A stretch of 64,000 bases of DNA from an uncultured Actinomycetes bacterium (GCA_963702655.1 CAVPDO010000012.1:107204-171203); one strand, 5' to 3'. Shown: positions 23,639 to 44,408, counted from the first letter of the stretch. Notes: generated by a model from the sequence alone, not told the origin. Numbers and translations are program-made.

Positions 23639-24340
23639 ATGCGCAGACTCGCTCGAATCTCGGGAATCGCTCTGGCCACCCTCGGGGTGCTCGCCCTGGT
23701 CTGGGTGGTCGTCGTCTGGCGCTGGCAGGATCCCTTCACCGCGCTCTACACCACCTGGCAGCAGCACAAGCTCGCCCAGCAGCTCGATCACGAGATGGTG
23801 GCCCAGCCGGAGCCGAAGCCGCGGCGGGGCGAGTCGCTCGCCGTCGAGGCCCGCGCGATCGAGACTGCGGCGGCCCGGTTCCGCCACACGACCAAGGAGG
23901 GACAGGCGATCGGGCGGATCGTCGTCACCCGCCTCGGCCTGAGCATGGTGCTGGTGAACGGCACCGACGAGAGCTCCCTGGAGCGCGGCCCCGGCCGCGA
24001 CCTCCGCTCGTACATGCCGGGGCAGAGCCGCCTCGTCTACATCGCCGGGCATCGCACGACCTTTCTGGCTCCGTTCTCGAACATCAACCAGATGCGGCCG
24101 GGTGACCTGGTCCGTCTGGAGATGCCGTACGGGACGTTCGTCTATCGCGTGTTCAAGCACCGGATCGTCCCGTCCGACGACCTGGCGGTCCTCAAGTCGC
24201 CGCGGCATGAAGTCCTGATCCTCCAGGCCTGCAACCCGCGTTTCTTTGCCACGCAGCGCTACCTCGTCTACGCCCACCTCACCTCGGTCGATCCCAGGAA
24301 CGGCCAACCGTTGCGACCGTCGCTGCTGGCGGCTCCCTAG
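23639..24340 (+). CDS. Sortase (transpeptidase)
   Basis: N-terminal TM anchor. Catalytic His (YIAGHRTT), Cys (LILQACNP) and Arg (QRYLVYA). Confidence 0.85.
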   Translation: MRRLARISGIALATLGVLALVWVVVVWRWQDPFTALYTTWQQHKLAQQLDHEMVAQPEPKPRRGESLAVEARAIETAAARFRHTTKEGQAIGRIVVTRLGLSMVLVNGTDESSLERGPGRDLRSYMPGQSRLVYIAGHRTTFLAPFSNINQMRPGDLVRLEMPYGTFVYRVFKHRIVPSDDLAVLKSPRHEVLILQACNPRFFATQRYLVYAHLTSVDPRNGQPLRPSLLAAP

Positions 24341-25028
24341 GGGCACGATCGGAGCCGGCAGACCCACCGGGGGCTATGCCCCGCTCGAGCATCCGACTGT
24401 TCTCGTCGCGGACGACGACGTGCCGCACCGTCGCGGAGTGCGCGCCGGACTCGAGGCGCACGGCTTCATCGTGGTCGCCGAGGCCGGAGAAGCCGCCCAG
24501 GCGGTCTCCTCGGCTTCCCGCCTGCGACCGAACGTCTGCCTGATCGACGTCGAGCTGGCCGGCGGCGGCCTGAACGCTATCGCCCGGATCGCGAAGGCGT
24601 CACCCGGCTCGCTGATCGTCGTACTGAGCGCGTCGGAACGTGCCGGAGACGTCGTCGCAGCCGTGGCCCGCGGCGCTTCCGGCTACCTGCTCAAGGGGCT
24701 CGACGACGAGCATCTCGCCTCCGCTCTGCGGGCCGCCTTCGCCGGCGAGCCGGCGGTCTCGCGGTCGCTCGTTCCTCACCTGGTCGCCGAGATCAGACGC
24801 GAGTCCACGCGCCGGCTGACGATGCAGGAGGGTGCCGTGACCCTGACCCCACGCGAATGGGAGGTGGGAGAGATGCTGGTGGCCGAGAGCTCGACTATAG
24901 AGATCGCGGACCGCCTCGGTGTCTCCCCCGTCACCGTCCGCAGGCATGTCGGCCAGCTCCTGCGCAAGCTCGGCGTGGAGACCCGTGGGGAAGCCGTCGA
25001 CGTGCTCCGCACCTACGGCTGGCGCTGA
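24246..25028 (+). CDS. NarL/LuxR-family response regulator (start uncertain)
   Basis: Receiver domain (VLVADDD, CLIDVEL, VVLSAS, YLLKG) plus a LuxR HTH (LTPREWEVGEML...STIEIADRLGVSPVTVRRHV). The only in-frame canonical start is TTG 24246, which overlaps the sortase gene by 95 nt. Confidence 0.8.
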   Translation: MPRSATSSTPTSPRSIPGTANRCDRRCWRLPRGTIGAGRPTGGYAPLEHPTVLVADDDVPHRRGVRAGLEAHGFIVVAEAGEAAQAVSSASRLRPNVCLIDVELAGGGLNAIARIAKASPGSLIVVLSASERAGDVVAAVARGASGYLLKGLDDEHLASALRAAFAGEPAVSRSLVPHLVAEIRRESTRRLTMQEGAVTLTPREWEVGEMLVAESSTIEIADRLGVSPVTVRRHVGQLLRKLGVETRGEAVDVLRTYGWR

Positions 25029-25176
25029 GATCTGCCAGCGCTTTTTCGAGCCCACCCGGACCTGAGTCGACGTCGGACTGGACGTCCGGCGGGCAGGCCG
25101 GCACGGCTGCCGCGCAACGATGCACCCGACAGGCACGCCCCCGCGCAGACAGTCAGGCCTCCTTGGGCCCGCAGGG

Positions 25177-25872
25177 TCAGGACGTCGATTCGAGCGTCAG
25201 AGTCAGGGGGCGTGTCTGCCTTACCTTTTGCGCCACCGAGGCCAGGTGCCGGCGTACGGTCACGACCGACAGCCCGAGCTCGTGCGCGATCTCCTTCGGC
25301 GTCATCCCCTCGCGGCGCCGCGCCATCACGTCGGCCTCGCGGCGCGTCAGCTCGACCGGAGGGCCGTCCGCCGAGACGTGCTTCTCGCGCAACTCGCCGC
25401 GCACCTGTTCGATCAGGGTGACGACCGCAGCCCGCGGGATCACCGCCTCGCCGCGGAAAGCGACCTCGACGGCGCGCGCGAGCCCTCCGGCTCCGATCGT
25501 CTCGGGAACGAAACCGATCGCCCCGGCCCGAAGGGCGGCGAGCAGCACTTCCTGGTCGAGCACCGGCGCGACGACGAGCACCGGGACCGTGGGGGCCTGC
25601 TCGACGATGCGTCGCACGGCGGCGAAGGAGCCACCCGGAACGTGGACGTCGACGAGCGCGACTCCGGCGTGCTGCAGGGAGGTGGCCTCGGTCGCAGCGG
25701 TCACGTCGGACGTATCGGCGACCACGTCCCAGCCGAAGCGCATAAGGACGCTGCGGCGCGCCGCGCGAACGAGCCCCAGACCGCCGACCAGCACGATCGT
25801 GCGCGGCGACTCATCGGGCGTGGCCGAGGCGGCGACGCAACCAGCAGAATGGGATGTCAACGAAGCGTCCAA
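25177..25872 (-). CDS. LuxR-family regulator with an atypical receiver domain
   Basis: LuxR HTH (LTRREADVMARRREGMTPKEIAHELGLSVVTVRRHL). The receiver keeps ALVDVHVPG, but the N-terminal acidic pair is replaced (IVLVGGLG). Confidence 0.8.
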   Translation of the reverse strand: MDASLTSHSAGCVAASATPDESPRTIVLVGGLGLVRAARRSVLMRFGWDVVADTSDVTAATEATSLQHAGVALVDVHVPGGSFAAVRRIVEQAPTVPVLVVAPVLDQEVLLAALRAGAIGFVPETIGAGGLARAVEVAFRGEAVIPRAAVVTLIEQVRGELREKHVSADGPPVELTRREADVMARRREGMTPKEIAHELGLSVVTVRRHLASVAQKVRQTRPLTLTLESTS

Positions 25873-27563: not shown

Positions 27564-28232
27564 CTAGCGGGTCGTCTCGCGGAAGAACGCGATCGCCTGT
27601 TCGCGGTCCTTCACGCCGAGCTTGCGGACGATGGAGGAGATGTGGGCGCGGACGCCGCTCTGCTTCAGCTGCAGCCGCCGTCCGATCTCACGCGTCGACA
27701 TGCCGTCGGCCAGCGCCGCGAGGACGTCCCACTCGCGGCTCGTCAGCCGCACGCCGAGCTCGCCCGACACGGCCGTCGTGCGGAAACGCGGGTCGCTCGC
27801 ATGGAACTCCTTGACCAGGCGCGCGACCAGGGTCCGCGGAAGCGCGGCCTTGCCGTCGACGACGTCCTGCAGCGTGCGAGGCAGGAGGCTCAGATTGAGA
27901 TCCTTGACGAGGTAGCCGACCGCCCCGGCCCGGAGCGCGGAGAAGAGGCTCGCGTCGTCGTCCGAAACCGTGAGCATCACGACCTTCGTGGTTGGCAGGC
28001 GCGCCGAGATCTCCCAGGCGGCCGCGACGCCGCTGCCCGGCATGCGGAGGTCGAGCAGGCAGATGTCGGGCCTGGTCTCGAGCGCCTGCTGCACGGCGCG
28101 TGCCGCATCCGCGGCCTCGGCGCAGACGATCAGACCGCCGTCGGTCAGCGCGCGCCGGACGTCGTCGCGGGTCGGAGCGTGGTCGTCGGCGATGAGCACG
28201 CGGAGCGGTACGGCCGGCGCGGCGGCGTTCAC
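27564..28232 (-). CDS. NarL-family response regulator
   Basis: VLIADDH, CLLDLRMPG, VVMLTVS, YLVKD, plus a LuxR HTH (LTSREWDVLAALADGMSTREIGRRLQLKQSGVRAHI). GTGA overlap with the kinase gene. Confidence 0.9.
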   Translation of the reverse strand: MNAAAPAVPLRVLIADDHAPTRDDVRRALTDGGLIVCAEAADAARAVQQALETRPDICLLDLRMPGSGVAAAWEISARLPTTKVVMLTVSDDDASLFSALRAGAVGYLVKDLNLSLLPRTLQDVVDGKAALPRTLVARLVKEFHASDPRFRTTAVSGELGVRLTSREWDVLAALADGMSTREIGRRLQLKQSGVRAHISSIVRKLGVKDREQAIAFFRETTR

Positions 28233-29596
28233 AGCTCGAGCTCCACCTTGGTCCCGGCGCCGCGGCGCGAGTCGATCCGCAGCTTCCCGCCCAGCGCCTC
28301 GGCCCGCTCCTTCATGGTGACCAGGCCGTAGCCGCGCAGCGCTCCCTCGACGAAGCCCGCGCCGTCGTCGACGATTCCGAGCCGCATGCCCGCCTCGAGG
28401 CGCTCGAGGTAGACCCGCAGCACGTCCGCACCGCTGTGCTCCGCAGCGTTCGCCACCGCCTCGGACGCGATCCGCACCACGGCTTCCCGTTCCCGCGGCG
28501 AGAGGACGATGCCGCTGTCCAGCTCCATGTCCACGGCCGCCCCGTAGCGGCGGGCCGCCTCCCTGGTCGCTGCGGCGATTGCGTCCTCGAAGGGCTCGTC
28601 GGCCCTGGCCGAGAGCGCACCGACCACGCGCCGCGACTCCTCCTGCGCGCGCCCCACGCCGCGGAGGATCCGCTCGACGAGCTCGGGGTCCGGTCCCTGC
28701 TCCCGCAGGAGCCGGACGTTGCGGGCGATGAACGCGATCTCCTGGGCCAGCCCGTCGTGCACGTCGCGCGCAAGCCGGCGCCGCTCCTCGAGCGACGCGG
28801 CCGCGACGACGCTCGTCCAGTAGGAGGCGATTTCGCGCGCGGCCCCGATCAGCAGGGCGAGGTAGGAGCCGAGACGGAAGACGTCGCCCGTGTAGACCCA
28901 ATTGGGATGGAGCGACGGATGGAAGAAGTAGTTGACGTGACTCGCGGCCGACAGGATGCAGGCGATGACGAGCCAGGCGCTGAGCTCGTCCGCGGCGAAA
29001 CGCTGGCGCCGCGCGAAACCGAACGCCGCCAGGATGTACAGCGCTGCCAGCGCGAGCTGCAAGGTGCCGATGAGACCCGCCTGTGTGCCCTGCGCGGACG
29101 CGGACACGGTGATGCCGCTCGGGAGCAGTCTCGTATCGACCGCCAGCGGGACCGTTCCGGCGAGCGCGAGCGCCGTCGTGCAACCGAAGATCCGCAGCGC
29201 CCAGTGAGGGCCGACCGCCAGTCGCCGCCGGGGCAGGAGCGCGGCAATGGAGATGAGGGCCGCGGCCAGGAGGTTGGTGAAGAACATGTTCCAGACCGTC
29301 GCGCGGTTCGACTGCAGATCGAAGACGGCAGGCAGAGCGGCGAAGGCGAGGTTGGAGAAAGCGAGCAGCGCGAGTCCCGCCGACAGAATCAGCTCGTCGA
29401 GGAGACCGCTGCGGCGGAAGCGGCCGAGGAAGAGAAAGGCCGCTGCCGAGGCGGCGAGCGCCGCAGTCGTCTCGAGGGCGACGTGCACCCCCGGCGCCCG
29501 GACGGCGAAATCGAGCCTCGCGACGAATGCGATCACGATGGTCGCCACCGCCGACGCCACCGCGCACCCGTACGCAAGCCTCCTGAGCCGCACCAC
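28229..29596 (-). CDS. Sensor histidine kinase (HisKA_3/NarX-like)
   Basis: Six or more TM helices. H-box RRLARDVHDGLAQEI and HATPase motifs (EAVANAAEHSGA, IVDDGAGF, GYGLVTMKERAEALGG). Confidence 0.9.
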   Translation of the reverse strand: MVRLRRLAYGCAVASAVATIVIAFVARLDFAVRAPGVHVALETTAALAASAAAFLFLGRFRRSGLLDELILSAGLALLAFSNLAFAALPAVFDLQSNRATVWNMFFTNLLAAALISIAALLPRRRLAVGPHWALRIFGCTTALALAGTVPLAVDTRLLPSGITVSASAQGTQAGLIGTLQLALAALYILAAFGFARRQRFAADELSAWLVIACILSAASHVNYFFHPSLHPNWVYTGDVFRLGSYLALLIGAAREIASYWTSVVAAASLEERRRLARDVHDGLAQEIAFIARNVRLLREQGPDPELVERILRGVGRAQEESRRVVGALSARADEPFEDAIAAATREAARRYGAAVDMELDSGIVLSPREREAVVRIASEAVANAAEHSGADVLRVYLERLEAGMRLGIVDDGAGFVEGALRGYGLVTMKERAEALGGKLRIDSRRGAGTKVELEL

Positions 29597-29739: not shown

Positions 29740-30033
29740 GTGAACGCCGTTCCCCAGCTTGCACCCGACGAGCCGCTCTCACCCGAGCTCGTTCTCGTGC
29801 TCCCGGCCGAGCTTCGAGCCCAGGTTCTCGCCGGCCTCGACCTCCCCGCCCGGCCGACACCGAGACCGCTCGCGCGACCAGTTCCGCCTCGGGTTCCGCC
29901 TAGGCCCGCCGAGCCCATCGGGCGATCCGTGGCCAAGCTCGTCGTCGCCCGCTTCGCGCAGCTCGCATTGATCTTCGTCGCCGTCACGATCCTGACCCTC
30001 GCGCTGTCGCTCGTCGCGCAAGCGTTTCGCTGA
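29740..30033 (+). CDS. Hypothetical Pro-rich tail-anchored protein
   Basis: GTG at 29740, in frame with ORF 29641..30033. C-terminal TM helix (LALIFVAVTILTLALSLVAQAF). No homology evidence. Confidence 0.3.
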   Translation: MNAVPQLAPDEPLSPELVLVLPAELRAQVLAGLDLPARPTPRPLARPVPPRVPPRPAEPIGRSVAKLVVARFAQLALIFVAVTILTLALSLVAQAFR

Positions 30034-30207
30034 CGGTGCCGACCAAGGTCCTGGCCGGACCAGACCATCGTCCGGACTGGAGCGCCGCCGTGGTGTCGAA
30101 ACCGTGAGCAGACGCGGACGATGCACGGCATCCACAGACGGTGATGTCTCCTCGGACCCGGCGGGTCAGGACGTGTCACCAGAACTCGATGCCGTGCGCG
30201 GGCCGCG

Positions 30208-30681
30208 CTAGCCGCTCCGTGCAGCGATCGGCTCCACCACGTCCGCGGGCGCTTTCTTTCGAAGCGTGATGAAGAGCCAGAGGTACATGCCGAGGATCAG
30301 GAACGCGTTCACGGGATGGAGCGCCCCGACCCAGCGTCCCCCTCCGGGCAGGATCATCTGCACGAACGTCAGGATCGGCACCAGGATCGACACGACGCGG
30401 ACGCGGGTGTTCGGGTGCCACGCGATCAGTGCGCAAATCAGGAAGAGAAGCGCGCCGGGGAGCGTGAGGATGAACCCGAGCGCGCGGTGCGCATCGAGCG
30501 TCTTGGAGTTGCCGATGCAGTGCTCGGCCGCCAGATTGGCGCCTTTCTTGTCGCAGTCGTCCGAATGCTGGATCACCTTCAACCCGAAGATTCCCTCGCC
30601 CGCGAGGTAGACCTGGATCACGATCAGCACCACGTAGAGCGCCGAGAACCACTTGAGAACCGCCGTCGCGCCGCGCCGCAT
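30208..30681 (-). CDS. Small 4-TM membrane protein (resembles the DUF6220 type)
   Basis: ATG at 30681 with an AAAGGAG SD 8 nt upstream. VVLIVIQVYLAGEGIFG ... DAHRALGFILT ... ALHPVNAFLILG. Confidence 0.6.
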   Translation of the reverse strand: MRRGATAVLKWFSALYVVLIVIQVYLAGEGIFGLKVIQHSDDCDKKGANLAAEHCIGNSKTLDAHRALGFILTLPGALLFLICALIAWHPNTRVRVVSILVPILTFVQMILPGGGRWVGALHPVNAFLILGMYLWLFITLRKKAPADVVEPIAARSG

Positions 30682-30718
30682 CGTCTGACTCCTTTGCCGT
30701 CGTTTGCCGACGCGCGGG

Positions 30719-30755
30719 AGGCTACTACTCCCGCGTCCCGGAATCGTTACGGCGC
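30719..30755 (-). promoter_or_regulatory. Copy a of the conserved 22-bp element plus a -10-like TAGCCT
   Basis: Minus strand reads GCGCCGTAACGATTCCGGGACG, with ACGATT-N17-TAGCCT. It overlaps the stop codon of 30747..31931 and lies 37 nt upstream of ATG 30681. Confidence 0.55.
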
Positions 30756-31931
30756 CGCGCGCACCCAGACGGTCACGTGGGCCGGCTCGAGCGAGCGGGC
30801 TGCAGCATCGGCGAGCTCGTCGACGACCGTCTCGACGTCGACCGCGTCGCGGAGCCGTGTGCCGAACGCCACGACGGTCGCCTCGGAGTCGTAACGGGCC
30901 CGGTTGAAGCGGCGATCGACGAGACGCTGCAGCCGGAACCGCAACGGCGAGAAGAGCGCTGCCGCGGCGAGCGTCGAGGCCGCGACCCCGACCGGGCTCG
31001 AGAACGGCAGCACCCGCGTGGTCAGCAGGACGATTCCTGCGAAGACGCCGACCAGGAGCCCGGTGAGCAGCGTGTAGGACAGCGTCCGCGAGATCAGCCG
31101 GTCGATGTCGTAGAGCCGGTAGCGCAGGACCCCGACGCCGATCGAGATCGGCAGCGCGACGAGCCCGAGGAAGCCGGCCTTCCCGACCACCGAGATGATC
31201 CCGTGGTTCCCCGAGCCGACCGAGATCGCGATGAAGAAGCCGAACACCGCGAACGACCCTCCGGCCAACAGCCACTTCAGCTGCTGCCGGCGATCACCGG
31301 TCGAGCGGCGGTAGAGGACGACCTGGCGGACGACCCATGAGAGCGCGATCGCGAAGAAGGGGAGCACGACGGCGACGAACGCGGCGTTGTTGCCGTTGGC
31401 GCCGAGCTGCTTCAGCTCGCCGGAGGAGTCAATCCTGATCGGGTGGTCCGTGAAGGCGCCGAGATCCGTGTTGGTGAGATGGCCGACCAGCACGGCCACA
31501 AGCGCGATGTACGTCCAGAGCGTCCAACGCCAACGTCGCGAGACCTGGCCGTCGGGGAAGAAGAGGATCGGCAGAGGCAGAAGCACGAGCATCGACGCCC
31601 ATCCCTGGGTCAGGAAGACGGCGAGGCGCGAGAGTGGAAGGCCGTGATGGTCGATGCGGTAGGCACGGACGGCGTAGAAGCCCGCGTCAGCGCCGTAGGA
31701 GGCGGTGATGGCGATCGCGAGCAGAAGCCAGCCGATCGGGTTCCGCGGCTGCCGGCTCGCCACGAGCGCGCCCACGGCCGCGAACGGGATCATCAGCAGC
31801 TGCTGTCCGACTCCGCCGAGGGTGAGCTGATGTGCGACTGCCGACAGCGGGAAGGCCGCCAAGATCAGCACGCCGGCGGCCGCGCCGAGCCAGAGCGCAA
31901 GCTTCGAGTGCGGTTGTGCGCGCGCGCTCAC
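30747..31931 (-). CDS. Sensor-like polytopic membrane protein without a kinase domain, paralog 1
   Basis: QPRNPIGWLLL motif, about 9-10 TM helices and a conserved C-terminal module: LRYRLYDIDRLISRTLSYTLLTGLLVGVF...PFSSPVGVAASTLAAAALF...VDRRFNRARYD...LEPAHVTVWV. Confidence 0.8.
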   Translation of the reverse strand: MSARAQPHSKLALWLGAAAGVLILAAFPLSAVAHQLTLGGVGQQLLMIPFAAVGALVASRQPRNPIGWLLLAIAITASYGADAGFYAVRAYRIDHHGLPLSRLAVFLTQGWASMLVLLPLPILFFPDGQVSRRWRWTLWTYIALVAVLVGHLTNTDLGAFTDHPIRIDSSGELKQLGANGNNAAFVAVVLPFFAIALSWVVRQVVLYRRSTGDRRQQLKWLLAGGSFAVFGFFIAISVGSGNHGIISVVGKAGFLGLVALPISIGVGVLRYRLYDIDRLISRTLSYTLLTGLLVGVFAGIVLLTTRVLPFSSPVGVAASTLAAAALFSPLRFRLQRLVDRRFNRARYDSEATVVAFGTRLRDAVDVETVVDELADAAARSLEPAHVTVWVRAAP

Positions 31932-33118
31932 CGCTTGATCCAGACGCTGACGTGGGTGGGCTCGAGCGAGGCGCCGGCGGCAGCGGCGAGCTCGTCAAGG
32001 ACGGTGTCGACGTCGACCGCGTTCCGCAGTCGCGCCGCGAACGCGGAAACGGTCAGTTCGGCGTCGTAGTGCGCGCGGTTGAAGCGGCGATCGACGACGC
32101 GTTGAATCCGGCGGCGGAGAGGGTTGAAAAGCGCGAGCGACGCCAGCGTCGAGGCAGCGACCCCGACCGGCGAGGAGAACGGCAGCACGCGGGTCGTCAG
32201 CAGTACGAGCCCGGCGAAGACACCCACGAGCAAGCCGGTCAGGAGCGCGTAGGAGAGCGTGCGCGAGATCAGCCGGTCGATGTCGTACAGCCGGTAACGC
32301 AGGATCCCGATGCCGATCCCGATCGGAAGGCCGAGCAGCGCCAGCGTGCCGAGATAGCCGACTAGGGCGAAGACGCCGGAGCCGTTGTGTCCGATGATCG
32401 TCACGAGCCCGCCCGCCACTGCCAGCGCCGCGCCGGCCATCAGCCACTTCAGCTGCACCCGCCGCACGCCGGTAGCCCGTCGATAGCCGGGAATCTGGGC
32501 GACGATCCACGCGAGCCCGACGCCGAGGACGATGAAGAAGAACACGTTCTGGTAGATGCTCCACCAGGCCCAGGCTCCGGTCGGATGGTCCTCGAGAAGC
32601 AGGTTGCCGGTCGAGTCGATGCGCACCCGGCCGGTAACGACCGCATCGACGGCGATCCCGTATGCGGCGGTGAGCCAGACGACGCAGCCGACACCGAAGC
32701 CGCCGAGCGGCAGGCGCCAACGTCCCGGCGGGAGCTCGCCGTCCGGGAAGAGCAGGATCGAGAGGGCGAGCAGCGCGATCCCGGGCGCCCACGAGGGCTG
32801 GAGCAGGACGGCAAGCCGGCCGAGGGGCAGGCTCCCGTGATGGTCGCGGTAGTCGAGCACCGAGTAGCTCGACGCCGCGTCGTCGAAGGAGAGAAAGAGC
32901 GCGCAGCCGAGGAGCACCCAGCCCATCGGGTTCCGGGGTTGTCGCCAGGCGACGATGAGACCGACGATCCCGAAGCCCGGGATGAGGACGATCGAGCCGC
33001 CGTCACCGGCGCTGAAGCTGTGGTCGGCCGCAGTGAAGACCACGGCTGCGACCGCGAGCAGGATCGTCGCGATTCCCAGCGCGAAAGCCGTCCCGGGCGT
33101 CGCGAGTCGGCGTGGCAT
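31928..33118 (-). CDS. Sensor-like polytopic membrane protein without a kinase domain, paralog 2
   Basis: ATG at 33118 (MPRRLATPG). Same architecture as paralog 1. GTGA overlap with paralog 1. Confidence 0.8.
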   Translation of the reverse strand: MPRRLATPGTAFALGIATILLAVAAVVFTAADHSFSAGDGGSIVLIPGFGIVGLIVAWRQPRNPMGWVLLGCALFLSFDDAASSYSVLDYRDHHGSLPLGRLAVLLQPSWAPGIALLALSILLFPDGELPPGRWRLPLGGFGVGCVVWLTAAYGIAVDAVVTGRVRIDSTGNLLLEDHPTGAWAWWSIYQNVFFFIVLGVGLAWIVAQIPGYRRATGVRRVQLKWLMAGAALAVAGGLVTIIGHNGSGVFALVGYLGTLALLGLPIGIGIGILRYRLYDIDRLISRTLSYALLTGLLVGVFAGLVLLTTRVLPFSSPVGVAASTLASLALFNPLRRRIQRVVDRRFNRAHYDAELTVSAFAARLRNAVDVDTVLDELAAAAGASLEPTHVSVWIKR

Positions 33119-33125
33119 GTGCGGG

Positions 33126-33162
33126 AATCTATTCCTGTTCCGTCCCGGGATCGTTACGGCGC
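33126..33162 (-). promoter_or_regulatory. Copy b-minus of the 22-bp element plus -10 TAGATT (leaderless)
   Basis: Minus strand reads GCGCCGTAACGATCCCGGGACG, with ACGATC-N17-TAGATT, then 7 nt to ATG 33118. Confidence 0.6.
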
Positions 33163-33173
33163 GTAACGATCCC
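33147..33173. promoter_or_regulatory. Perfect 12-3-12 palindrome GGGATCGTTACG-GCG-CGTAACGATCCC in the divergent intergenic region
   Basis: Read directly from the sequence. Each arm forms the -35-proximal part of one of the two divergent promoters. Confidence 0.7.
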
Positions 33174-33194
33174 GTAGCGCGTGAGGCGTAGATT
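33159..33194 (+). promoter_or_regulatory. Copy b-plus of the element plus -10 TAGATT (leaderless)
   Basis: GCGCGTAACGATCCCGTAGCG, with ACGATC-N17-TAGATT, then 6 nt to GTG 33201. Confidence 0.6.
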
Positions 33195-33200
33195 CCTGGC

Positions 33201-34376
33201 GTGGTCGCATGCCACGAACGCATCCGAGTCGCAGCGGCGGCGGCGATCGTGCTGTTCCTCGCTGCCGGGCTCGCGCTAACCGGCGTGACGCACGATCCCT
33301 GGCCCACGAATGACGGGATAGCCCTCGTCGTGCTGACCGCGTACGGCGGCGTCGGTTACGTGATCGCACGGGCCGAGCCGCGGAATCCCATCGGCTGGAT
33401 CTTTCTCGGGCTTGGGTTCTTCACGCTGGCGGACTACCTGAACCGCCTCTACCTGGTTCTCGATTACCGGGAACACGGCGGTGGGCTGCCACTGGGCGGC
33501 ATCGCGGTCTTCTGGCAAGGAAGCTGGTCGCTCTTTCCGATCATCGTCGCCCTGCCGGCGATCGTCCTGTTCCCGGACGGCCGCGTCTCGCAGCGGTGGC
33601 GGAAGCTGCTCTACATCTACGCAGGCGCCACGATCGTCTTCATGACCCTTTCGTTCACGAGTCAGCTCACCGACGGCGTTTCCGGCCGGATCGCCGTCAC
33701 CGTTCGTGGGGATCTCCCGAACAGCGGCGGCGGCCCCTTGGCTTCTGCCGGTTGGGTGCTGGTTCCGTTCTTCCTCGGCTGCTGGATCGCGTTCGTGTGG
33801 CGGCAGGTCAGCGCGTGGCGATCCTCGTCCGGCGTACGTACGGCACAGCTGAAGTGGCTGGCGGCCGGCAGCGCGATACTCGTCGTGTCCTGCATCGTCA
33901 TCGTGATGTTCGGGGACGGCTCGACCGTCGGCTCCCGCGTCGCCGCCGACCTGGCCACCATCGGAATCGGCGTCCTGCCGGTCGCGGTGGGGGTGGCCAT
34001 CCTGCGGTTCCGTCTCTACGAGATCGACCGGCTGATCAGCAGAACGTTGGCGTATGCGCTCCTGACCGGGCTGCTGGTCGGCGTGTTCGGCGGGATCGTG
34101 CTGCTGACCACGCGCGTTCTGCCCTTCTCGTCGCCCGTCGGCGTTGCGGCATCGACCCTTGCTGCGGCCGCGCTGTTCAACCCGCTGCGCCGCCGCGTGC
34201 AGCACCTCGTCGACCGGCGCTTCAACCGCGCGCGCTACGACCGGGACGCACTCGTGGCTCGGTTCGGCGTGCGACTGCGGGATGCGGTCGACTCGGACAC
34301 GGTCGTCGCCGAGCTTGCCGGGGTTGCGGCAAGCTCCGTCGAGCCGGCGCACATCTCCGTCTGGGTGCAGAGCTAA
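33201..34376 (+). CDS. Sensor-like polytopic membrane protein without a kinase domain, paralog 3
   Basis: EPRNPIGWIFL. C-terminal module LRFRLYEIDRLISRTLAYALLTGLLVGVF...VDRRFNRARYD...VEPAHISVWV. Confidence 0.8.
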   Translation: MVACHERIRVAAAAAIVLFLAAGLALTGVTHDPWPTNDGIALVVLTAYGGVGYVIARAEPRNPIGWIFLGLGFFTLADYLNRLYLVLDYREHGGGLPLGGIAVFWQGSWSLFPIIVALPAIVLFPDGRVSQRWRKLLYIYAGATIVFMTLSFTSQLTDGVSGRIAVTVRGDLPNSGGGPLASAGWVLVPFFLGCWIAFVWRQVSAWRSSSGVRTAQLKWLAAGSAILVVSCIVIVMFGDGSTVGSRVAADLATIGIGVLPVAVGVAILRFRLYEIDRLISRTLAYALLTGLLVGVFGGIVLLTTRVLPFSSPVGVAASTLAAAALFNPLRRRVQHLVDRRFNRARYDRDALVARFGVRLRDAVDSDTVVAELAGVAASSVEPAHISVWVQS

Positions 34377-34383
34377 CTCCCGG

Positions 34384-37161
34384 CTACCACTCGACGAGCT
34401 TCCAGATCTCCGGCTCGCTCTGGCCGCCTTCGCCGATCTCGGCGAAGATCGCGACCGCGGACTTGAGGTGCTCCATCGCCTCCTCCCGCCGGCCGGCGGC
34501 GTTGAGGAGGTCGGCGACGTTGTTCGCCAGCGCGGCTTCGCGGTGGCGGTCGCCGACGGCGGCACAGAGCACCAGCGCCTCCTCGGTCAGCTCGAGCGCC
34601 CGCTCCAGCTCGCCCTCGGCGCGCAGGTCGAGCGCGAGGTTGTTGAGCGCCGCCGCGCGGGCCGAGGGGTCGTCCTCCTCGCTCGCCAGCTCGAGGCTGC
34701 GTTCGAGCCGGGAACGCGCCTCCGCGTGGTCGCCGCGGCCGGTGGCGAGGATGCCGAGGATGTTGTGAGCCTGGGCGAGGGCGCGGCCGGTCCCCGGCGG
34801 CGTCGGCGAGCTCCAGCGCCCGCCGGGCCAGCTCCTGCGCCTCGCCGTCGTGGCGTCTGTGGGCCGTCAGGCTTCGATCGGCCAGGAGCCGCGCCTCGAG
34901 CACGTCCGCGTCGTCCGGCAGCGCAGCGAGCGCCTCGGCGAACGAGCTGTCGGCGAGCTCCCACTCGCCGCGACGGAGATGGACGAGGCCGATGCGGTGC
35001 GCGATCGAGGCGAGTCGCTCCGCGGGGGCGAGCGCGGCCGCCGCCTCGTAGCTCTCGAGCGCGGCCGAGTAGTCGCCGCCGAGCGTGAGCAGGTCGCCGA
35101 TCTCCTCGTGCAGCGCCGCCGGATCGTCGTGCCCGAGGCCGAGCGCCTCCCGGAAGTGGGCGTGCGCCTCGGCGTTCGCGTACAGCCCGCGCGCGTGCGC
35201 ACCGGCGACCCGGAACCACTCCGCGGCCTCGGTCTCGCGACCCGCGTCGCGGAGGTGTCGAGCGACCGCGCCGGCGGCGGCGCCGTTCCGGTCGCGTGCG
35301 GCGAGGGCCTCGGCGGCCCGGCGATGGAGCAGGCGACGGCGGCCGGAGCTCGTCAGGTCGACGGCCACCCGGCGTGCCTGCTCGTGCCGGAAGGCGTAGC
35401 CCGCGTCCACCTCGACGAGCAGCCCGCGCCGCATGAGCTCCTCGAGCGACGCGACCGTCTCCTCCTCGTTGCGGCCGCTGACGGTCGCGGATCAGGTCCG
35501 CGTCGAACGGGCGGCCCACCACGGCGGCGGCGGCGAGCACCTGGCCGGCGACCTCGCTCGCCGCGGCGATCCGCGACTCGAGCAGCCGGCGCAAACCGGG
35601 CGGAATGTCCGTCGGCGTCTCCGTCCGGCGGAGCAGTCGAGATACTGCATGACGAAGAACGGGACGCCGTCGCGTCTCCTCGTAGAGCCGCGCCGATGAG
35701 CTCTCGGCGCAGCGCCGGCCGCCTCCGCGAACTCGGCCACGTCGTCGCGGTCCGAGCCGATCGAGACTGGATCGCCGTGCCGAGCCGTCTTGCGCCGGCG
35801 CGGCGAGGATCGCCTCACCGGATGAGTCGGCGGGCGTCTCCTCCGGCCGCCAGGTGAGCAGCAGCAGCACCGGCCGATCCGCGCAGGCGGCGGGTCAGGA
35901 ACGCGAGCAGCTTCGAGCGACGGCGGGTCGGCCCAGTGCGACGTCGTCGACGAACGAGTCACGCCGGGCCGCGTCGCCGGCGGTTGCGTCAAGAGCTCGC
36001 GTGACGCCGTCGAGGAAGCGCGCCTGCGCGCCCGGCCCGTCGAGCGCGGCGCAGGCGACGTGCCGAGCTCGGGGACGCAGCCGCGCGGCCTCGGCCGCGG
36101 CACCGGGATCGACACCGCAGCCGCCGGCCGCGCGCGAGAGCGCCCCGCACAGCTCGATCGCGCAGCCGAACGCCAGCCCGGCCTCGCTCCTCGACGGCGC
36201 GGGCCGACGCGACGCGGAGCCCGCGGCACGCGCCCAGGTCGACGGCAGCTCCTGCGGCCAGCCGCGTCTTCCCGATGCCCGTCTCGCCCTCGAGGACGAC
36301 GAGCCGGCCGTCCGGCCCGACCGCTGCGTAGGCGCCGGAGCGCGGCCCACTCGCGCTTCGCGGCCGACGAGCGGATAGTCGCGCGCCGCCGCCTTCGGGA
36401 GCGGGCATCGGCTCCGGCGACCGGCCGCGCCGGACAGCCCTCGCGCACCGCATGGTAGGCGGCCGTCGTCTCCTCGGTCGGCGCGACTCCGAGCTCGCGG
36501 TGGAGCGTGCGGACGCACTCGCGGTACTGCGCGAGCGCCGCGGCCCGCTCGCCGCTCGCGCCGTAGAGCTCGATCAGCCGCCGGTGAGCCGTCTCGTTCA
36601 GCGGCTCGAGCGCCAGCCGGCGGCGGGCGTGCTCGATCGCGCGCACGTGGCTGCCGCGCGCGCCGAGCCCTTCGGCGAGGCGATCGAGGACGGCGCCGAG
36701 CTCGCGCGCGAGGGTTCCCGCCTGGAGCGACTGCCAGTCGTCGAACGGGGCGCTGTCGCGCAGGCCGAAGCCGGCAAGGAAGGCTCCGCGCTGCAAGCGC
36801 CGCAGCCTGCTCGAGCTCGGCCGAGGTCCGCTGCCGGCCGCGAGCCGACGGAACTCGTCGACGTCGAGCGAGGACGCCTTCCCGCTCGAGCGAGACCGCG
36901 TCGCGCGCGACGGCGAGCCAGCGCCCGCCGAGCGCCGAGCGCAGCGTCGAGAGCGTGCGCCGCAGCGCCGCGCGCGCGCGGTCGGGCGCGTACTCGGGCC
37001 ACAGCAGCTCCGCCAGCACGTCGCGTCCGTGCCGGCCCTGCTCGACGCGCCAGATAGGCGAGCAGCGCGGTCGCCTTGCGCGTGTCGACCGTGAGCGGAA
37101 CGCCGTCGCAGAGCGCCTCCGGAGGGCCGAGGAGCGACAGCCGCAGCGTCGAGTCGCCCAC
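34384..37161 (-). pseudogene. AfsR/SARP-like regulator (winged-helix + BTAD + NB-ARC-type ATPase + TPR), with a dozen or more frame changes as given
   Basis: Fragments in three frames stitch into one protein. MGDSTLRLSLLGPPEALCDGVPLTVDTRKATALLAYLA / VLAELLWPEYAPDRARAALRRTLSTLRSAL. BTAD: FLAGFGLRDSAPFDDWQ...NETAHRRLIELYGASGERAAALAQYRECVRTLHRELGVAPTEET. P-loop: LVVLEGETGIGKTRLA. Then LLLLTWRPEE, GVPFFVMQYL and TPR repeats ending ...EIWKLVEW-TAG. Confidence 0.85.
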
Positions 37162-37201
37162 AGCACGATCCTAGACGCAACGAGCCGCAGGGCATAGCGT
37201 T

Positions 37202-37238
37202 GCGCCGTAACGATTTCGGGACGGTCGTCCCGTAGAAC
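37202..37238 (+). promoter_or_regulatory. Copy c of the 22-bp element plus a -10-like TAGAAC
   Basis: GCGCCGTAACGATTTCGGGACG, with ACGATT-N17-TAGAAC, then 9 nt to ATG 37248. Confidence 0.55.
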
Positions 37239-37247
37239 GGGAGCGGA

Positions 37248-38862
37248 ATGAGCGCCTGGCCACAGTCGATCGCGAGAGTCATCCGCCGGACGGAGCGCCC
37301 CACCGCAGCGGCGGAGGCCACCGCCGTCGAGACCGACGTCGGAGCCCCAGGAGCAGCTCGACGTCCGCCCGATCGAGATCTCGCCGAACGATCCGATCGT
37401 CGCCTACTTCCAGAGCGCCCCCGGCGCGGTCGACCTCGAGGAGCTCGAACTCGAGTCGCCGGCGCTGACTGCGCTGCGCGCGGCGGGCGTGAAGCTCGCG
37501 GTGCCGCTCGTCAGCCAGGGCGAGCTCGTCGGCCTGCTCAACCTCGGCCCGCGGCTCTCGGACCAGGACTACTCCACCGACGACCGGAAACTGCTCGACT
37601 CGCTCGCCGCGCAGGCCGCGCCGGCCCTGCAGGTGGCGCAGCTCGTACGTCGGCAGGAGGCGGAGGCGCGGTCGCGCGAGCGGATCGAGCAGGAGCTGCG
37701 CGTAGCGACGACGATCCAGCAGAACTTCCTGCCGCGCGAACTGCCCGACCTGCCCGGCTGGGACGTCTCCGCCTACTACCGCCCGGCGCGGGAGGTCGGC
37801 GGCGACTTCTACGACTTCATCGGGCTGCCGGAGGGTCACATCGGGATCGTGATCGGCGACGTCACCGACAAGGGCGTCCCGGCGGCGATGGTCATGGCCG
37901 CAACGCGAAGCGTCCTGCGCGCCTCGGCCCAGCGCGTCGTCTCCCCGGGCGAGGTGCTCGGGCGAGTCAACGACCTCATGTGCCCGGACATGCCGTCGAA
38001 GATGTTCGTCACCTGCCTCTACGGCGTGCTCGAGTCCGCCACGGGGCGCTTCACCTTCGCGAACGCCGGCCACAACCTCCCCTACGTGCGCACCGACGGC
38101 GGCTCGGCCGAGCTGCGCGCGACCGGGATGCCGCTCGGGCTGCTGCCGGGGATCGCGTACGAGGAGACCGAGGCGCAGCTCGAGCCCGGGCAGACGATGC
38201 TCCTCCACTCCGACGGCGTCGCCGAGGCGCACGGGCCGGGCGCGGAGATGTTCGGCTTCCCGCGGCTTCAGGACGTGGTGGGCGCCCGCAGCGGGCGCGG
38301 CGAGGTGATCGACCGCGTCCTCACCGAGCTCGGGCGCTTCACCGGCTCCGACTGGGAGCAGGAGGACGACATCACTCTCGTCGCGCTGACGCGGTACGGG
38401 GCGGCGCCGGTGGAGTCCGCGGGCAGGCTAGACGTCTCGTTTCAGGTCGCGAGCGAGCCCGGCAACGAGAAGCAGGTGAGCGAGCGGGTGGCCGAGGCGA
38501 CTGCGCCGCTCGCGCTCCCGGCGGCGCGGCTCGAGCAGCTCAAGACCGCCGTGGCCGAGGCGGCCATGAACGCGATCGAGCACGGCAACGAGAGCCGGGC
38601 CGAGCTTCCCGTCGACGTCTCCGTGCGTGCCTCCGACGCCGAGCTCGTGGTGGCGATCACCGACCACGGCGGCGGCCGCGAGATCCCCGAGGCGGAGGAG
38701 CCCGACCTCGAGGCGAAGCTCGACGGGCTGCAGAAGCCCCGCGGCTGGGGCCTCTTCCTGATCCAGAACATGGTCGACGACATCCGCGTCTCGAGCGACG
38801 AGAGCACGCACACGATCGAGCTCGTCATGCGACTGGAACGGGGCGGCAATGGAAGCGACTGA
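37248..38862 (+). CDS. GAF-like / PP2C (SpoIIE) phosphatase fused to an RsbW-like HATPase domain; +1 frameshift at the C-run 37345-37348
   Basis: The frame from ATG 37248 continues in the 37489 frame (...EQLDVRPIEISPNDPIVAYFQSAPGAVDLEELELESPALTALRAAGVKLAVPLVSQGELVGLLNLGPR). PP2C motifs: GGDFYDF, IGDVTDKGVPAAMVMA, LLHSDGV, DDITLVAL. HATPase: AVAEAAMNAIEHGN, ITDHGGG, GWGLFLIQNMVD. Length is 1 mod 3. Confidence 0.85.
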
Positions 38863-39179
38863 GTTCGCGGCGAGCGCGCGCCGCGCAGGACGGCGTGGCC
38901 GTGCTGGAGCTCTCCGGCGACGTGAGTGCGGGAGCAGAGAGCGAACTGCAGCTCGCCTACGGCCAGGTGGCCACGGAGCCGGTCGTCGTGCTCGACTTCG
39001 CCGCCGTCGACTACATCAACTCGACCGGAATAGCCCTGATCGTCGGGCTCCTGGCCCAGGCGCGCAAGAGCGGACAGGAGGTCCGCGCGCGGGGGCTGGC
39101 CCAGCACTACCGGGAGATCTTCCGCATCACGCGGCTCTCGGACTTCATGACCATCCTCGACGAGGAGGAAGCGGAATGA
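38849..39179 (+). CDS. STAS-domain anti-sigma-factor antagonist 1 (+1 frameshift near 38871-38885)
   Basis: DGVAVLELSGDV...VVLDFAAVDYINSTGIALIVGLLAQARKSGQEVRARGL..HYREIFRITRLSDF. ATG 38849 is in another frame, and no canonical in-frame start precedes the domain. Length is 1 mod 3. Confidence 0.75.
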
Positions 39180-39529
39180 CGCAGGACACTGCGGCGACGA
39201 TGGAGGTGCATCTCGCCGGCGCCGAGCTGGGCGTGATCACCGTCCGGGGCGACGTCACGGCCGGTTCGGAGGACGCCCTGATGGACGCCTACACGCGAGC
39301 CGCGGAGGGCTCGCCACGGGCCATCCTGCTCGACTTCTCCGGGCTCGAGTACATGAACTCGGGCGGAATCGGCCTGCTCGTGACGCTGCTCGTCCGCGCC
39401 AACCGCGCGAGGCAGCGGCTGCTCGCCTGCGGGCTCAACGACCACTACCGCCAGATCTTCGAGCTGACCCGCCTCGACGAGGCGATCTCGATCTTCACGA
39501 ACGAGGCCGAGGCGCTGGCCGCGTTGTGA
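39176..39529 (+). CDS. STAS-domain anti-sigma-factor antagonist 2
   Basis: ATGA overlap with STAS1. ILLDFSGLEYMNSGGIGLLVTLLVRANRARQRLLACGLNDHYRQIFELTRLDE. Confidence 0.85.
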   Translation: MTQDTAATMEVHLAGAELGVITVRGDVTAGSEDALMDAYTRAAEGSPRAILLDFSGLEYMNSGGIGLLVTLLVRANRARQRLLACGLNDHYRQIFELTRLDEAISIFTNEAEALAAL

Positions 39530-39550
39530 GGCGAACACGTTGAGGAGGAC

Positions 39551-40270
39551 ATGATGAGCGAGCAGCAGAACACGGCACGCGACCAGGGCAACTGGGCGAC
39601 TCCGGTCGACCGGCTCGCCGCGACGAACATCCCGGCGGGCGCGCTCGACACGGTCGGCGGCAAGCAGGTCGTCTCGCCGATCCAGGGCTTCGGGAAGATG
39701 TGGCAGAAGACGTACCGCATCTCGCTGGCCGGGACGGACGTGTCGCCGGCCGAGCTGATCCAGACGTGGAAGGACGAGTTCCCGAGCTTCTGGCCGAAGG
39801 GCAGCCAGTTCCACGCGCCGCTGACCGGGATCGCGCCCGGAGAGGTGGCGCTGCTGCAGGCATCCGTGGGCGGCGGCATGAAGCTGTCCACCGGCGTCTT
39901 CGTCCTCTACGCCGACGAGAACTCGTTCACGTTCATGACGCCCCAGGGGCACATGTTCGCGGGCTGGATCACGTTCTCGGCGGCCGAGGAGGACGGCGCG
40001 ACGATGGCGCAATGCCAGGTGCTGATGCGGGCCCAGGACCCACTGACCGAGGTCGGACTCGTGCTCGGCGGCCACCGCAAGGAGGACCGCTTCTGGCAGG
40101 ACACCATGCGGGCGCTGGCGGCCCGGTTCGGCATCGAAGCCGAGCCGGAGACGAGCGTCGTGTGCGTCGATAAGCGGCGCCAGTGGGGACGTGCCGGAAA
40201 CGTGCGCCACTCGAGCGCCTTCCGCTCGAGCGTCCACACCGCAACCGCGCCGCTCCGGAAGCGCAAGTAG
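39551..40270 (+). CDS. Conserved-looking hypothetical protein (family not recognised)
   Basis: Clean ORF with good GC3 (GFGKMWQKTYRI...FTFMTPQGHMFAGWITF). Confidence 0.6.
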   Translation: MMSEQQNTARDQGNWATPVDRLAATNIPAGALDTVGGKQVVSPIQGFGKMWQKTYRISLAGTDVSPAELIQTWKDEFPSFWPKGSQFHAPLTGIAPGEVALLQASVGGGMKLSTGVFVLYADENSFTFMTPQGHMFAGWITFSAAEEDGATMAQCQVLMRAQDPLTEVGLVLGGHRKEDRFWQDTMRALAARFGIEAEPETSVVCVDKRRQWGRAGNVRHSSAFRSSVHTATAPLRKRK

Positions 40271-40280
40271 CCTCAGCGGC

Positions 40281-44408
<4,128 letters not shown>

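Follow-up and report, generated by a model that had tools for sequence, protein, structure and literature searches.

The DNA considered here is a stretch of 64,000 nucleotides from an uncultured Actinomycetes bacterium (GCA_963702655.1, CAVPDO010000012.1:107204-171203), referred to below as the window, with positions counted from its first letter. It carries three paralogous genes, g1, g2 and g3, for ten-helix membrane proteins that resemble the sensor part of a histidine kinase but lack the kinase. Two of them are on the minus strand, g1 at 30747..31931 (394 amino acids, aa) and g2 at 31928..33118 (396 aa), and are translationally coupled, the stop codon of g2 overlapping the start codon of g1 in the sequence GTGA. 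The third, g3, lies on the plus strand at 33201..34376 (391 aa) and is divergent from g2, with an intergenic gap of 82 bp. An earlier note, made from the sequence alone, had placed the genes and their coupling in just this way, and all three are intact open reading frames (ORFs). The ORF of g2 can be extended to 33307, but the ATG at 33118 is preferred because homologs and promoter geometry (see below) agree on it. The G+C content at third codon positions (GC3) is 0.86–0.90 in g1-g3, the same as in real genes of the window, which has an overall G+C of ∼70%. Their nearest relatives are proteins of metagenome-assembled genomes of Gaiellaceae.

Over their full length, g2 and g3 are 53% and 46% identical to g1, respectively. 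When the proteins are split at the RYRLYD motif, the N-terminal parts (∼265 codons) show 30–40% amino acid identity and are held together by landmarks such as (Q/E)PRNP(I/M)GW and FPDG..RWR, which the earlier note had pointed out and which prove to be family-wide. The last 124 codons are 73–80% identical in protein and 73–77% in DNA, so that the term "almost identical", used for this module in the earlier note, suits its first ∼70 residues but is too strong for the whole. Synonymous divergence (dS) in these codons is 0.65–0.80, and the ratio of nonsynonymous to synonymous divergence (dN/dS) is 0.22–0.26. As dS is near saturation at a GC3 of ∼0.9, recent gene conversion among the tails is excluded, and their likeness has been kept by selection, as had been proposed. 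In comparisons with orthologs from related genomes, dN/dS of the N-terminal part is 0.22–0.43 in 8 of 10 pairs (0.22–0.71 overall; the two g2 pairs at 0.53 and 0.71 are just 41–46% identical and possibly non-orthologous), and that of the C-terminal part is 0.10–0.22. Purifying selection thus acts on both parts of the proteins.

A kinase sensor region without a kinase

Scans of g1-g3 against Pfam and NCBIfam revealed no kinase, GAF or other domain, and each protein ends just past the C-terminal module, in agreement with the earlier description of all three as kinase-less. Neither the DHp domain (HisKA_3) nor HATPase_c was detected with these databases, the Pfam scan gave no STAS domain, and a PADLOC scan yielded nothing usable. 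Weak matches to DUF6118 and DUF1652 were set aside, as they lie on hydrophobic stretches.

A different picture emerged when plasmid and megaplasmid records were searched with the C-terminal module (tblastn). Four matches were in cultured organisms (Streptomyces, Deinococcus, Nonomuraea and Embleya), and all four are full-length GAF-HisKA_3-HATPase_c kinases of 680–720 aa. Residues 42–388 of g1 align with kinase residues ∼64–413 (BLASTP, E 5e-26 and 5e-22), at 26–31% identity over ∼350 residues and with all landmark motifs common to both; two further kinases display the same motifs. Judged by these alignments, the whole ten-helix region of g1-g3 is homologous to the N-terminal sensor region of the kinases. 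The link to kinases had been drawn in the earlier note for the last 130 aa; the homology is real but extends over the whole protein. The window proteins stop where the kinases run on into the body of a GAF-like domain, and their retained end looks like the first helix and strand of that domain.

A sensor domain known from kinases, HisKA_7TM (PF16927), has been described before (PMC5847659). Weak matches to it, covering helices 1–7, are given by 6 of 60 relatives at E ≤ 0.05 (best E 1.6e-6), but g1-g3 themselves do not match even at E ≤ 1, and the gathering threshold of 28.6 bits is not reached. A remote relation of the family to HisKA_7TM is plausible on this evidence, while membership is not established.

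Hydropathy and AlphaFold2 concur on ten membrane helices; two models were built, the better one (of g1) with a mean predicted local distance difference test score (pLDDT) of 83.7 and a predicted template modelling score of 0.76. The loops on the side predicted to face inward contain 24 Lys and Arg residues, against 4 in the outward loops, and thus an N-in/C-in topology is predicted. Foldseek searches of the Protein Data Bank (PDB) with the two models gave 7TM receptor bundles only, none of them significant (best E 0.02–0.07, template modelling score ∼0.3), and no fold was assigned; a PDB sequence search found no match.

Conservation was mapped on 126 family members. Three cytoplasmic motifs are constant (RQPRNPIGW, LFPDG..SRRWRW and WRRS.G.RRQQLKWL), as are helix 8, the cytoplasmic LRYRLYDIDRLISRTL loop, helices 9–10 and a tail of the form PLR.R.QRLVDRRFNRARYD...LEPAHVSVW. 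The variable parts are helices 1, 3, 5, 6 and 7 and the outward loops. By this map and the positive-inside count, each conserved motif falls on the cytoplasmic side. Presumably, then, the variable helices and outward loops form the sensing surface, and the cytoplasmic loops, helices 8–10 and the ∼65-aa tail a common output surface. The earlier notion of a variable part joined to a fixed cytoplasmic tail was right about the tail but too narrow, since the constant module also spans helices 8–10 and all cytoplasmic loops. In g1 the C-terminal module of 125 residues (30750..31124, minus strand) comprises the cytoplasmic RYRLYDIDRLISRTL loop, helices 9 and 10 and the ∼65-aa tail, which carries VDRRFNRARYD and terminates in EPAHVTVW; the same module is found at 31931-32302 (minus strand) in g2 and at 34002-34373 (plus strand) in g3. 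All three proteins end 0–6 residues past the conserved EPxHVxVW segment. Although invariant in sequence, the last 14 residues have pLDDT values below 52 in the monomer model, which fits a docking peptide.

The absence of a kinase is a property of the wider family. When the 125-aa module was used in an exhaustive search, 14,614 representative clusters (50% identity) matched at E ≤ 1e-3, of which 8,370 still did so at E ≤ 1e-10. Among the best 150 matches, the module lies ≤15 residues from the C-terminus in 123, is followed by 16–50 residues in 16 and by >50 residues in 11, and a kinase core is present in none (0/150). With three kinase-core queries, phmmer detected 0 kinase cores in 300 relatives, against 25 in 50 sequences of the positive control; the case raised in the earlier note, that orthologs elsewhere always carry a kinase domain, is therefore not what is seen. 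Some matches looked like long fusions (P0158, P0210, P0241, L032, L006), but they have no kinase domain, and two long family ORFs that were examined contain no Pfam domain. Others bear the pipeline name "disulfide bond formation protein DsbB" from the Joint Genome Institute (JGI), for example P0003, P0004 and P0018; this name was rejected, as there is no Pfam DsbB match at E ≤ 1.

Genomic context was studied in 77 loci (given below by L numbers), which come from Gaiellaceae, Solirubrobacterales, Streptosporangiaceae, Acidimicrobiia, Dormibacterota, Limnocylindrales and Acidobacteriota. They were picked by similarity to the g1 tail, are mostly from one soil metagenome project and so form a biased sample. 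Intact family ORFs in these loci end 0–22 residues after the module, and those with longer remainders are frameshift-split or over-extended. A search starting from the Streptomyces kinase recovered both architectures, with and without a kinase, and on a rough (distance-only) neighbour-joining tree the kinase-less proteins are one clade, apart from the kinases. The three window proteins have the features that define this family: a length of ∼380–430 aa, the set of cytoplasmic motifs, a module with VDRRF.R.RYD, and a stop within ∼15 residues of EP.HVS.W. By sequence, this clade and the ten-helix input module of the GAF-HisKA_3 kinases have a common ancestor. The clade, which is very large, may well be an ancient one of free-standing membrane receptors without enzymatic output, with g1-g3 among its members; the chances of this are put at slightly short of even.

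A conserved gene cluster and its promoter box

When all ORFs from the 77 loci were clustered all against all and annotated with profiles, a set of seven components emerged: an AfsR-like SARP, a GAF-PP2C-HATPase_c_2 protein, two STAS proteins (STAS-A and STAS-B), a conserved protein designated c5, a CrtI/CrtO-like flavoprotein, and a tandem array of the ten-helix genes. The SARP gene is transcribed divergently from the other cluster genes. Of the 77 loci, 26 have this cluster; they represent Actinomycetota, Chloroflexota, Dormibacterota and Acidobacteriota. The same arrangement occurs on both of two metagenome contigs with precomputed Pfam labels that were reached independently via the kinase query. 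Co-occurrence with PP2C-HATPase_c_2 and STAS genes, a point on which the earlier note had staked its proposal, is thus conserved. Family genes average 3.2 copies (maximum 8) in cluster loci, compared to ∼1 elsewhere (p = 3e-9). L066, L074 and L075, which represent the most distant lineages, have the array immediately before the PP2C gene and in the same orientation.

The same gene set is found in the window at 34255-41718. The AfsR-like large SARP (SARP domain, AAA_16/STAND, TPR) is encoded on the minus strand at 34255..37161, and its SARP domain matches EmbR (E 5.5e-7) and AfsR (E 3e-6). On the plus strand follow the GAF-PP2C(SpoIIE)-HATPase_c_2 protein (37248..38862; SpoIIE 1.3e-51, HATPase_c_2 4.6e-21), STAS-A, of the anti-sigma-antagonist type (38849..39179), STAS-B (39176..39529), both identified by STAS matches, then c5 (39551..40270), and a CrtI/CrtO-like oxidoreductase dependent on flavin adenine dinucleotide (40183..41718, with homology beginning at 40351). 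The partner-switching set beside g1-g3 is complete, in that a PP2C phosphatase, a HATPase_c_2 serine kinase and a STAS substrate are encoded together. The c5 protein, of ∼240–270 aa, has a weak resemblance to DUF1990 and an invariant GFGKMWQKTYR motif; c5 and the oxidoreductase follow the STAS genes in ∼19 loci. A recurring small ORF, "c8", was discarded as a shadow ORF opposite the oxidoreductase gene.

Downstream of g1 is a gene for a small membrane protein (30208..30681, minus strand, 157 aa), with a weak DUF6220 match in the profile scan and the ribosome-binding site AAGGAG. A gene of this kind also follows the last ten-helix gene in L001-L003 and L051, where, as in the window, its own promoter box lies over the preceding stop codon. 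There are further variations on the cluster. In one lineage (L014, L019, L022, L029, L030, L036, L037, L042, L052) PP2C and HATPase_c_2 are separate overlapping ORFs, and a second, distant PP2C gene comes after the array on the opposite strand. Between array and PP2C gene, L082 (8846-9151, 8277-8849) and L083 (6422-6895) have tail-only family fragments (101, 157 aa) and likewise a small gene with a Guanylate_cyc domain, and the array of L082 is interrupted by a PemK/RHH toxin-antitoxin pair. On the other side of the three genes, 27564-29596 (minus strand) is occupied by a HisKA_3 kinase with an unrelated polytopic N-terminus, then a NarL-type regulator, and two more LuxR-type regulators lie at 24246-25872. 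This kinase (28229-29596) and its regulators were considered as partners of g1-g3 and rejected, because the N-terminus is unrelated and they are not conserved neighbours.

In the assembly, several partner genes are interrupted. That of the SARP, which L004 and L014 have in intact form, falls into at least 6 frame segments in the window; compared with the L004 ortholog it has ∼30 single-base indels, concentrated at 35440-36450. The frame of the PP2C gene shifts between 37298 and 37339, ∼17 codons in, and the ATG of STAS-A at 38849 is out of frame with the remainder of its gene (38849-38886). The N-terminal Rossmann segment of the oxidoreductase was not found in the frame of its ORF (40183-40351), so that a frameshift is probable there too. 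These frameshifts may reflect decay of the partner genes or poor consensus quality. Unlike them, g1-g3 have no frame defects.

The earlier note had called the PP2C and STAS genes co-regulated with g1-g3. In support of this, g2, g3 and the PP2C gene, like the small gene that follows g1, are each preceded by a copy of one 23-nt motif. The box that serves g2-g1, together with its −10-like hexamer, is at 33125..33159 on the minus strand (CCGTAACGATCCCGGGACGGAACAGGAATAGATTC; 42.7 bits with the weight matrix described below), and the ATG of g2 is 7 nt past the hexamer. The box of g3 is at 33161..33195 on the plus strand (37.5 bits), so that two copies of the motif, placed back to back, make up the nested palindrome in the g2/g3 gap, a palindrome also conserved in L001-L003. 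A third box (30718..30752, minus strand) lies over the stop codon of g1 (TAA within CGTAACGAT) and serves the small membrane-protein gene, and a fourth (37205..37239, plus strand; CCGTAACGATTTCGGGACGGTCGTCCCGTAGAACG) is upstream of the PP2C operon. The 23-mer GCGCCGTAACGATYYCGGGACGG recurs over the stop codon of g1 and 24 nt upstream of where the PP2C gene starts, giving three copies in the window where 0 are expected.

The motif is family-wide. An exact 13-mer occurs 40 times in the loci plus window (0.1 expected). A 35-nt weight matrix with a threshold of 14 bits (maximum of 10.9 bits in 1.2 Mb of shuffled sequence) gave 109 matches in 1.5 Mb, distributed over 69 of 77 loci. Of these matches, 65 immediately precede ten-helix genes, ∼25 precede PP2C operons and 4 the gene of the small membrane protein. 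A box precedes the gene in ∼45 of 51 single-copy family loci, and four kinase loci (L078-L081) have no match. Its common form is CGGTAACGTTCCCGGAACGGTCCGGGCGTAGCGT, with two direct repeats (GTAACG and GGGACG/GGAACG) offset by 11 nt, and a TANNNT hexamer (TAGATT, TAGCGT or TAGAAC) 8 nt past the second heptamer. In the window, 6–9 nt separate the end of the hexamer from the start codon at g2, at g3 and at the PP2C gene; this short distance predicts leaderless transcripts, that of g2 probably among them, and supports the chosen start codons.

SARP-dependent promoters have direct repeats 11 bp apart and an 8-bp gap to the hexamer (PMC10936776), and the geometry of the family box equals this published rule. 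The protein that binds the box is most likely the AfsR-like SARP, whose gene diverges from the PP2C operon; the motif suggests this neighbouring protein, which the earlier note had not mentioned, as the most direct regulator. A sigma-70 consensus scan of 30000-34600 found no promoter, and the repeats stand in place of a −35 region at the box promoters. Recognition by a sigma factor of the extracytoplasmic function (ECF) type, with GTAAC as −35 element, was also considered. It would involve a spacer of ∼19 nt to CGTA, longer than is usual for ECF-sigma promoters, and the 11-nt repeat fits a SARP better. As an Rfam scan of the window gave 0 matches, the shared motif is no known RNA family. In one lineage (L014, L019, L030, L036, L037, L052) an extra conserved element, ACCGTAACGCAGCAGCGTGAAAT, lies ∼45 nt upstream of the PP2C box and possibly acts as one more repeat recognised by this regulator. 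The family box also stands before small SRPBCC/Polyketide_cyc2-like genes in three lineages (L056 8345, L073 11140, L082 1466); together with the CrtI-like enzyme, their place in the predicted regulon hints at the handling of a hydrophobic compound.

Input or output of the circuit

Given a set of divergent membrane parts on one invariant cytoplasmic surface, encoded beside a complete partner switch, the preferred interpretation is that g1-g3 form a repertoire of membrane receptors that signal through this surface to the GAF-PP2C-kinase protein (estimated probability roughly 0.45). Each paralog would sense a different membrane or external cue, and its invariant cytoplasmic side, tail included, would relay that cue to the GAF-PP2C-kinase protein. 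The relay would then set the phosphorylation state of the STAS proteins, and hence the output of the switch. The ten-helix genes and the PP2C/STAS-A/STAS-B/c5/CrtI-like operon would be driven from promoters with one conserved box.

Several observations weigh against such receptors. The link of g1-g3 to the PP2C/STAS module consists of conserved synteny and a shared cis-element, and a common regulon is equally compatible with the ten-helix proteins being regulated products. Roughly two in three family loci hold one gene only and have no cluster within 10 kb, and the 77 loci are biased in the way described above. Neither a sigma or anti-sigma target of the switch nor a linked sigma factor was found. 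Lastly, with the SARP, PP2C, STAS-A and possibly oxidoreductase genes interrupted as assembled, the partners in this particular genome may be defective.

A more specific form of the receptor model is rather doubtful. It would make the family a new receptor class without any enzymatic or nucleotide-binding domain, in which 7TM-like sensors (up to eight in tandem, with others scattered) dock an invariant tail, whose end would be the first helix and strand left over from a lost GAF domain, on the GAF-PP2C-kinase protein. Docking would set STAS phosphorylation and then the activity of the AfsR-like SARP, which would in turn drive the receptor genes, forming a self-contained circuit that would be widespread in uncultured soil Actinomycetota, Chloroflexota, Dormibacterota and Acidobacteriota.

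The most serious competitor turns the relation around, making the ten-helix proteins the regulated output of the SARP and partner-switching circuit, induced with the CrtI-like oxidoreductase and the DUF1990-like and SRPBCC proteins, for example to deal with a hydrophobic or membrane compound. An activator-type box precedes nearly every family gene, scattered singles included, and the presence of the box before CrtI-like and SRPBCC-like genes in L075, L056, L073 and L082 resembles an effector regulon. Sensors, however, are often auto-regulated together with their own pathway, and in fold and sequence the proteins relate only to kinase sensor modules (HisKA_7TM, weakly 5TMR-LYT), not to transporters or enzymes. 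A conserved cytoplasmic face and tail, set against a variable membrane core and outer loops, is moreover the pattern of receptors that share a partner. An output role is on this evidence rather unlikely.

It is less probable again that the domain has a structural, transport or lipid-related role in the membrane unconnected with signalling, and that kinases recruited it as an input. The domain has no known function, some members carry the "DsbB" label, and the cluster neighbours hint at lipid chemistry. Yet no DsbB or transporter family of Pfam is matched even at E ≤ 1, and the Foldseek hits, though not significant, were confined to 7TM receptor bundles. The invariant cytoplasmic tail and the tight linkage to signalling genes also speak for a part in signal transduction.

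Homology of the whole sensor region to GAF-HisKA_3 kinases allows a further scheme, in which g1-g3 would be decoys or co-sensors in mixed oligomers with full-length kinases of the same ten-helix module, tuning two-component signalling; helices 8–10, within the most conserved part, are a possible oligomerisation surface. However, the window and the 77 loci encode no kinase with this module, the N-terminus of the adjacent kinase (28229-29596) is unrelated, and kinases and response regulators are not conserved neighbours (2–4 loci). The tail motifs of the two groups also differ (DRRFNRARYD in the kinase-less clade, DRLLYG.RD.PY in the kinases), and the groups separate on the tree, which leaves this scheme quite improbable. 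That g1-g3 are kinase genes truncated by assembly errors or decay, as frameshifts in other cluster genes of the window might suggest, has practically nothing left to commend it, given three intact ORFs with gene-like codon usage and dN/dS well below 1, thousands of relatives that end at the same position, and stop codons immediately followed by a promoter box or the next gene.

Novelty and comparison with known systems

No record of the family, the gene cluster or the motif was found in Pfam, NCBIfam, PADLOC, Rfam or the literature. The kinds of element involved (kinase input domain, partner-switching module, SARP box) are known; what is new is their combination and the free-standing family of putative receptors. 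Environmental input to partner-switching phosphatases and to large SARPs is, to our knowledge, largely unknown outside a few model systems. The analysis defines a family of ∼14,600 representative clusters (50% identity) for which there is no Pfam or NCBIfam model, traces its origin to the sensor half of a class of kinases, and defines a conserved seven-component gene cluster and a precise cis-element that delimits a regulon in four phyla, mostly in uncultured soil bacteria. If the receptor interpretation holds, input modules of kinases can be re-wired to a serine-phosphorylation switch by mere loss of the kinase, and the annotation of thousands of "hypothetical membrane proteins" would change.

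The closest known relatives of g1-g3 are GAF-HisKA_3-HATPase_c kinases such as WP_138957284.1 (Streptomyces sp. YIM 121038) and WP_015231682.1 (Deinococcus peraridilitoris), with which they share the aligned ten-helix region, the motifs P.N..GW, FP(D/N)G..RWR, QLKW and RYRLYDID, and the first helices past helix 10. In contrast to the kinases, they lack the rest of the GAF-like domain, the DHp histidine and the ATPase, have the distinct tail motif given above, and belong to a family without a response regulator as conserved neighbour. The HisKA_7TM model leaves helices 8–10 and the tail uncovered, and is described as part of kinases rather than as a free-standing protein.

The neighbouring genes have parallels of their own. 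The sensor-PP2C-HATPase_c_2 order of the GAF-PP2C-kinase protein is that of Rv1364c of M. tuberculosis (sensor-PP2C-kinase-STAS), except that the STAS domains are separate genes here, and the likeness concerns the partner protein and not g1-g3. The regulator has the SARP, NOD/AAA_16 and TPR regions of AfsR-type large SARPs, and the box has the geometry of their 22-bp direct-repeat boxes (11-bp repeats, 8-bp gap, TANNNT hexamer); the repeat sequence GTAACG / GGAACG is particular to this family, and the predicted regulon contains putative membrane receptors and a partner-switching operon in place of an antibiotic pathway.

In the RsbR paralogs of the Bacillus stressosome and in chemoreceptors, variable sensing parts are joined to a near-invariant part that plugs into one shared hub. 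As receptors, g1-g3 would follow the same logic by analogy, although with unrelated folds, as integral membrane proteins with neither a STAS nor a methyl-accepting domain.

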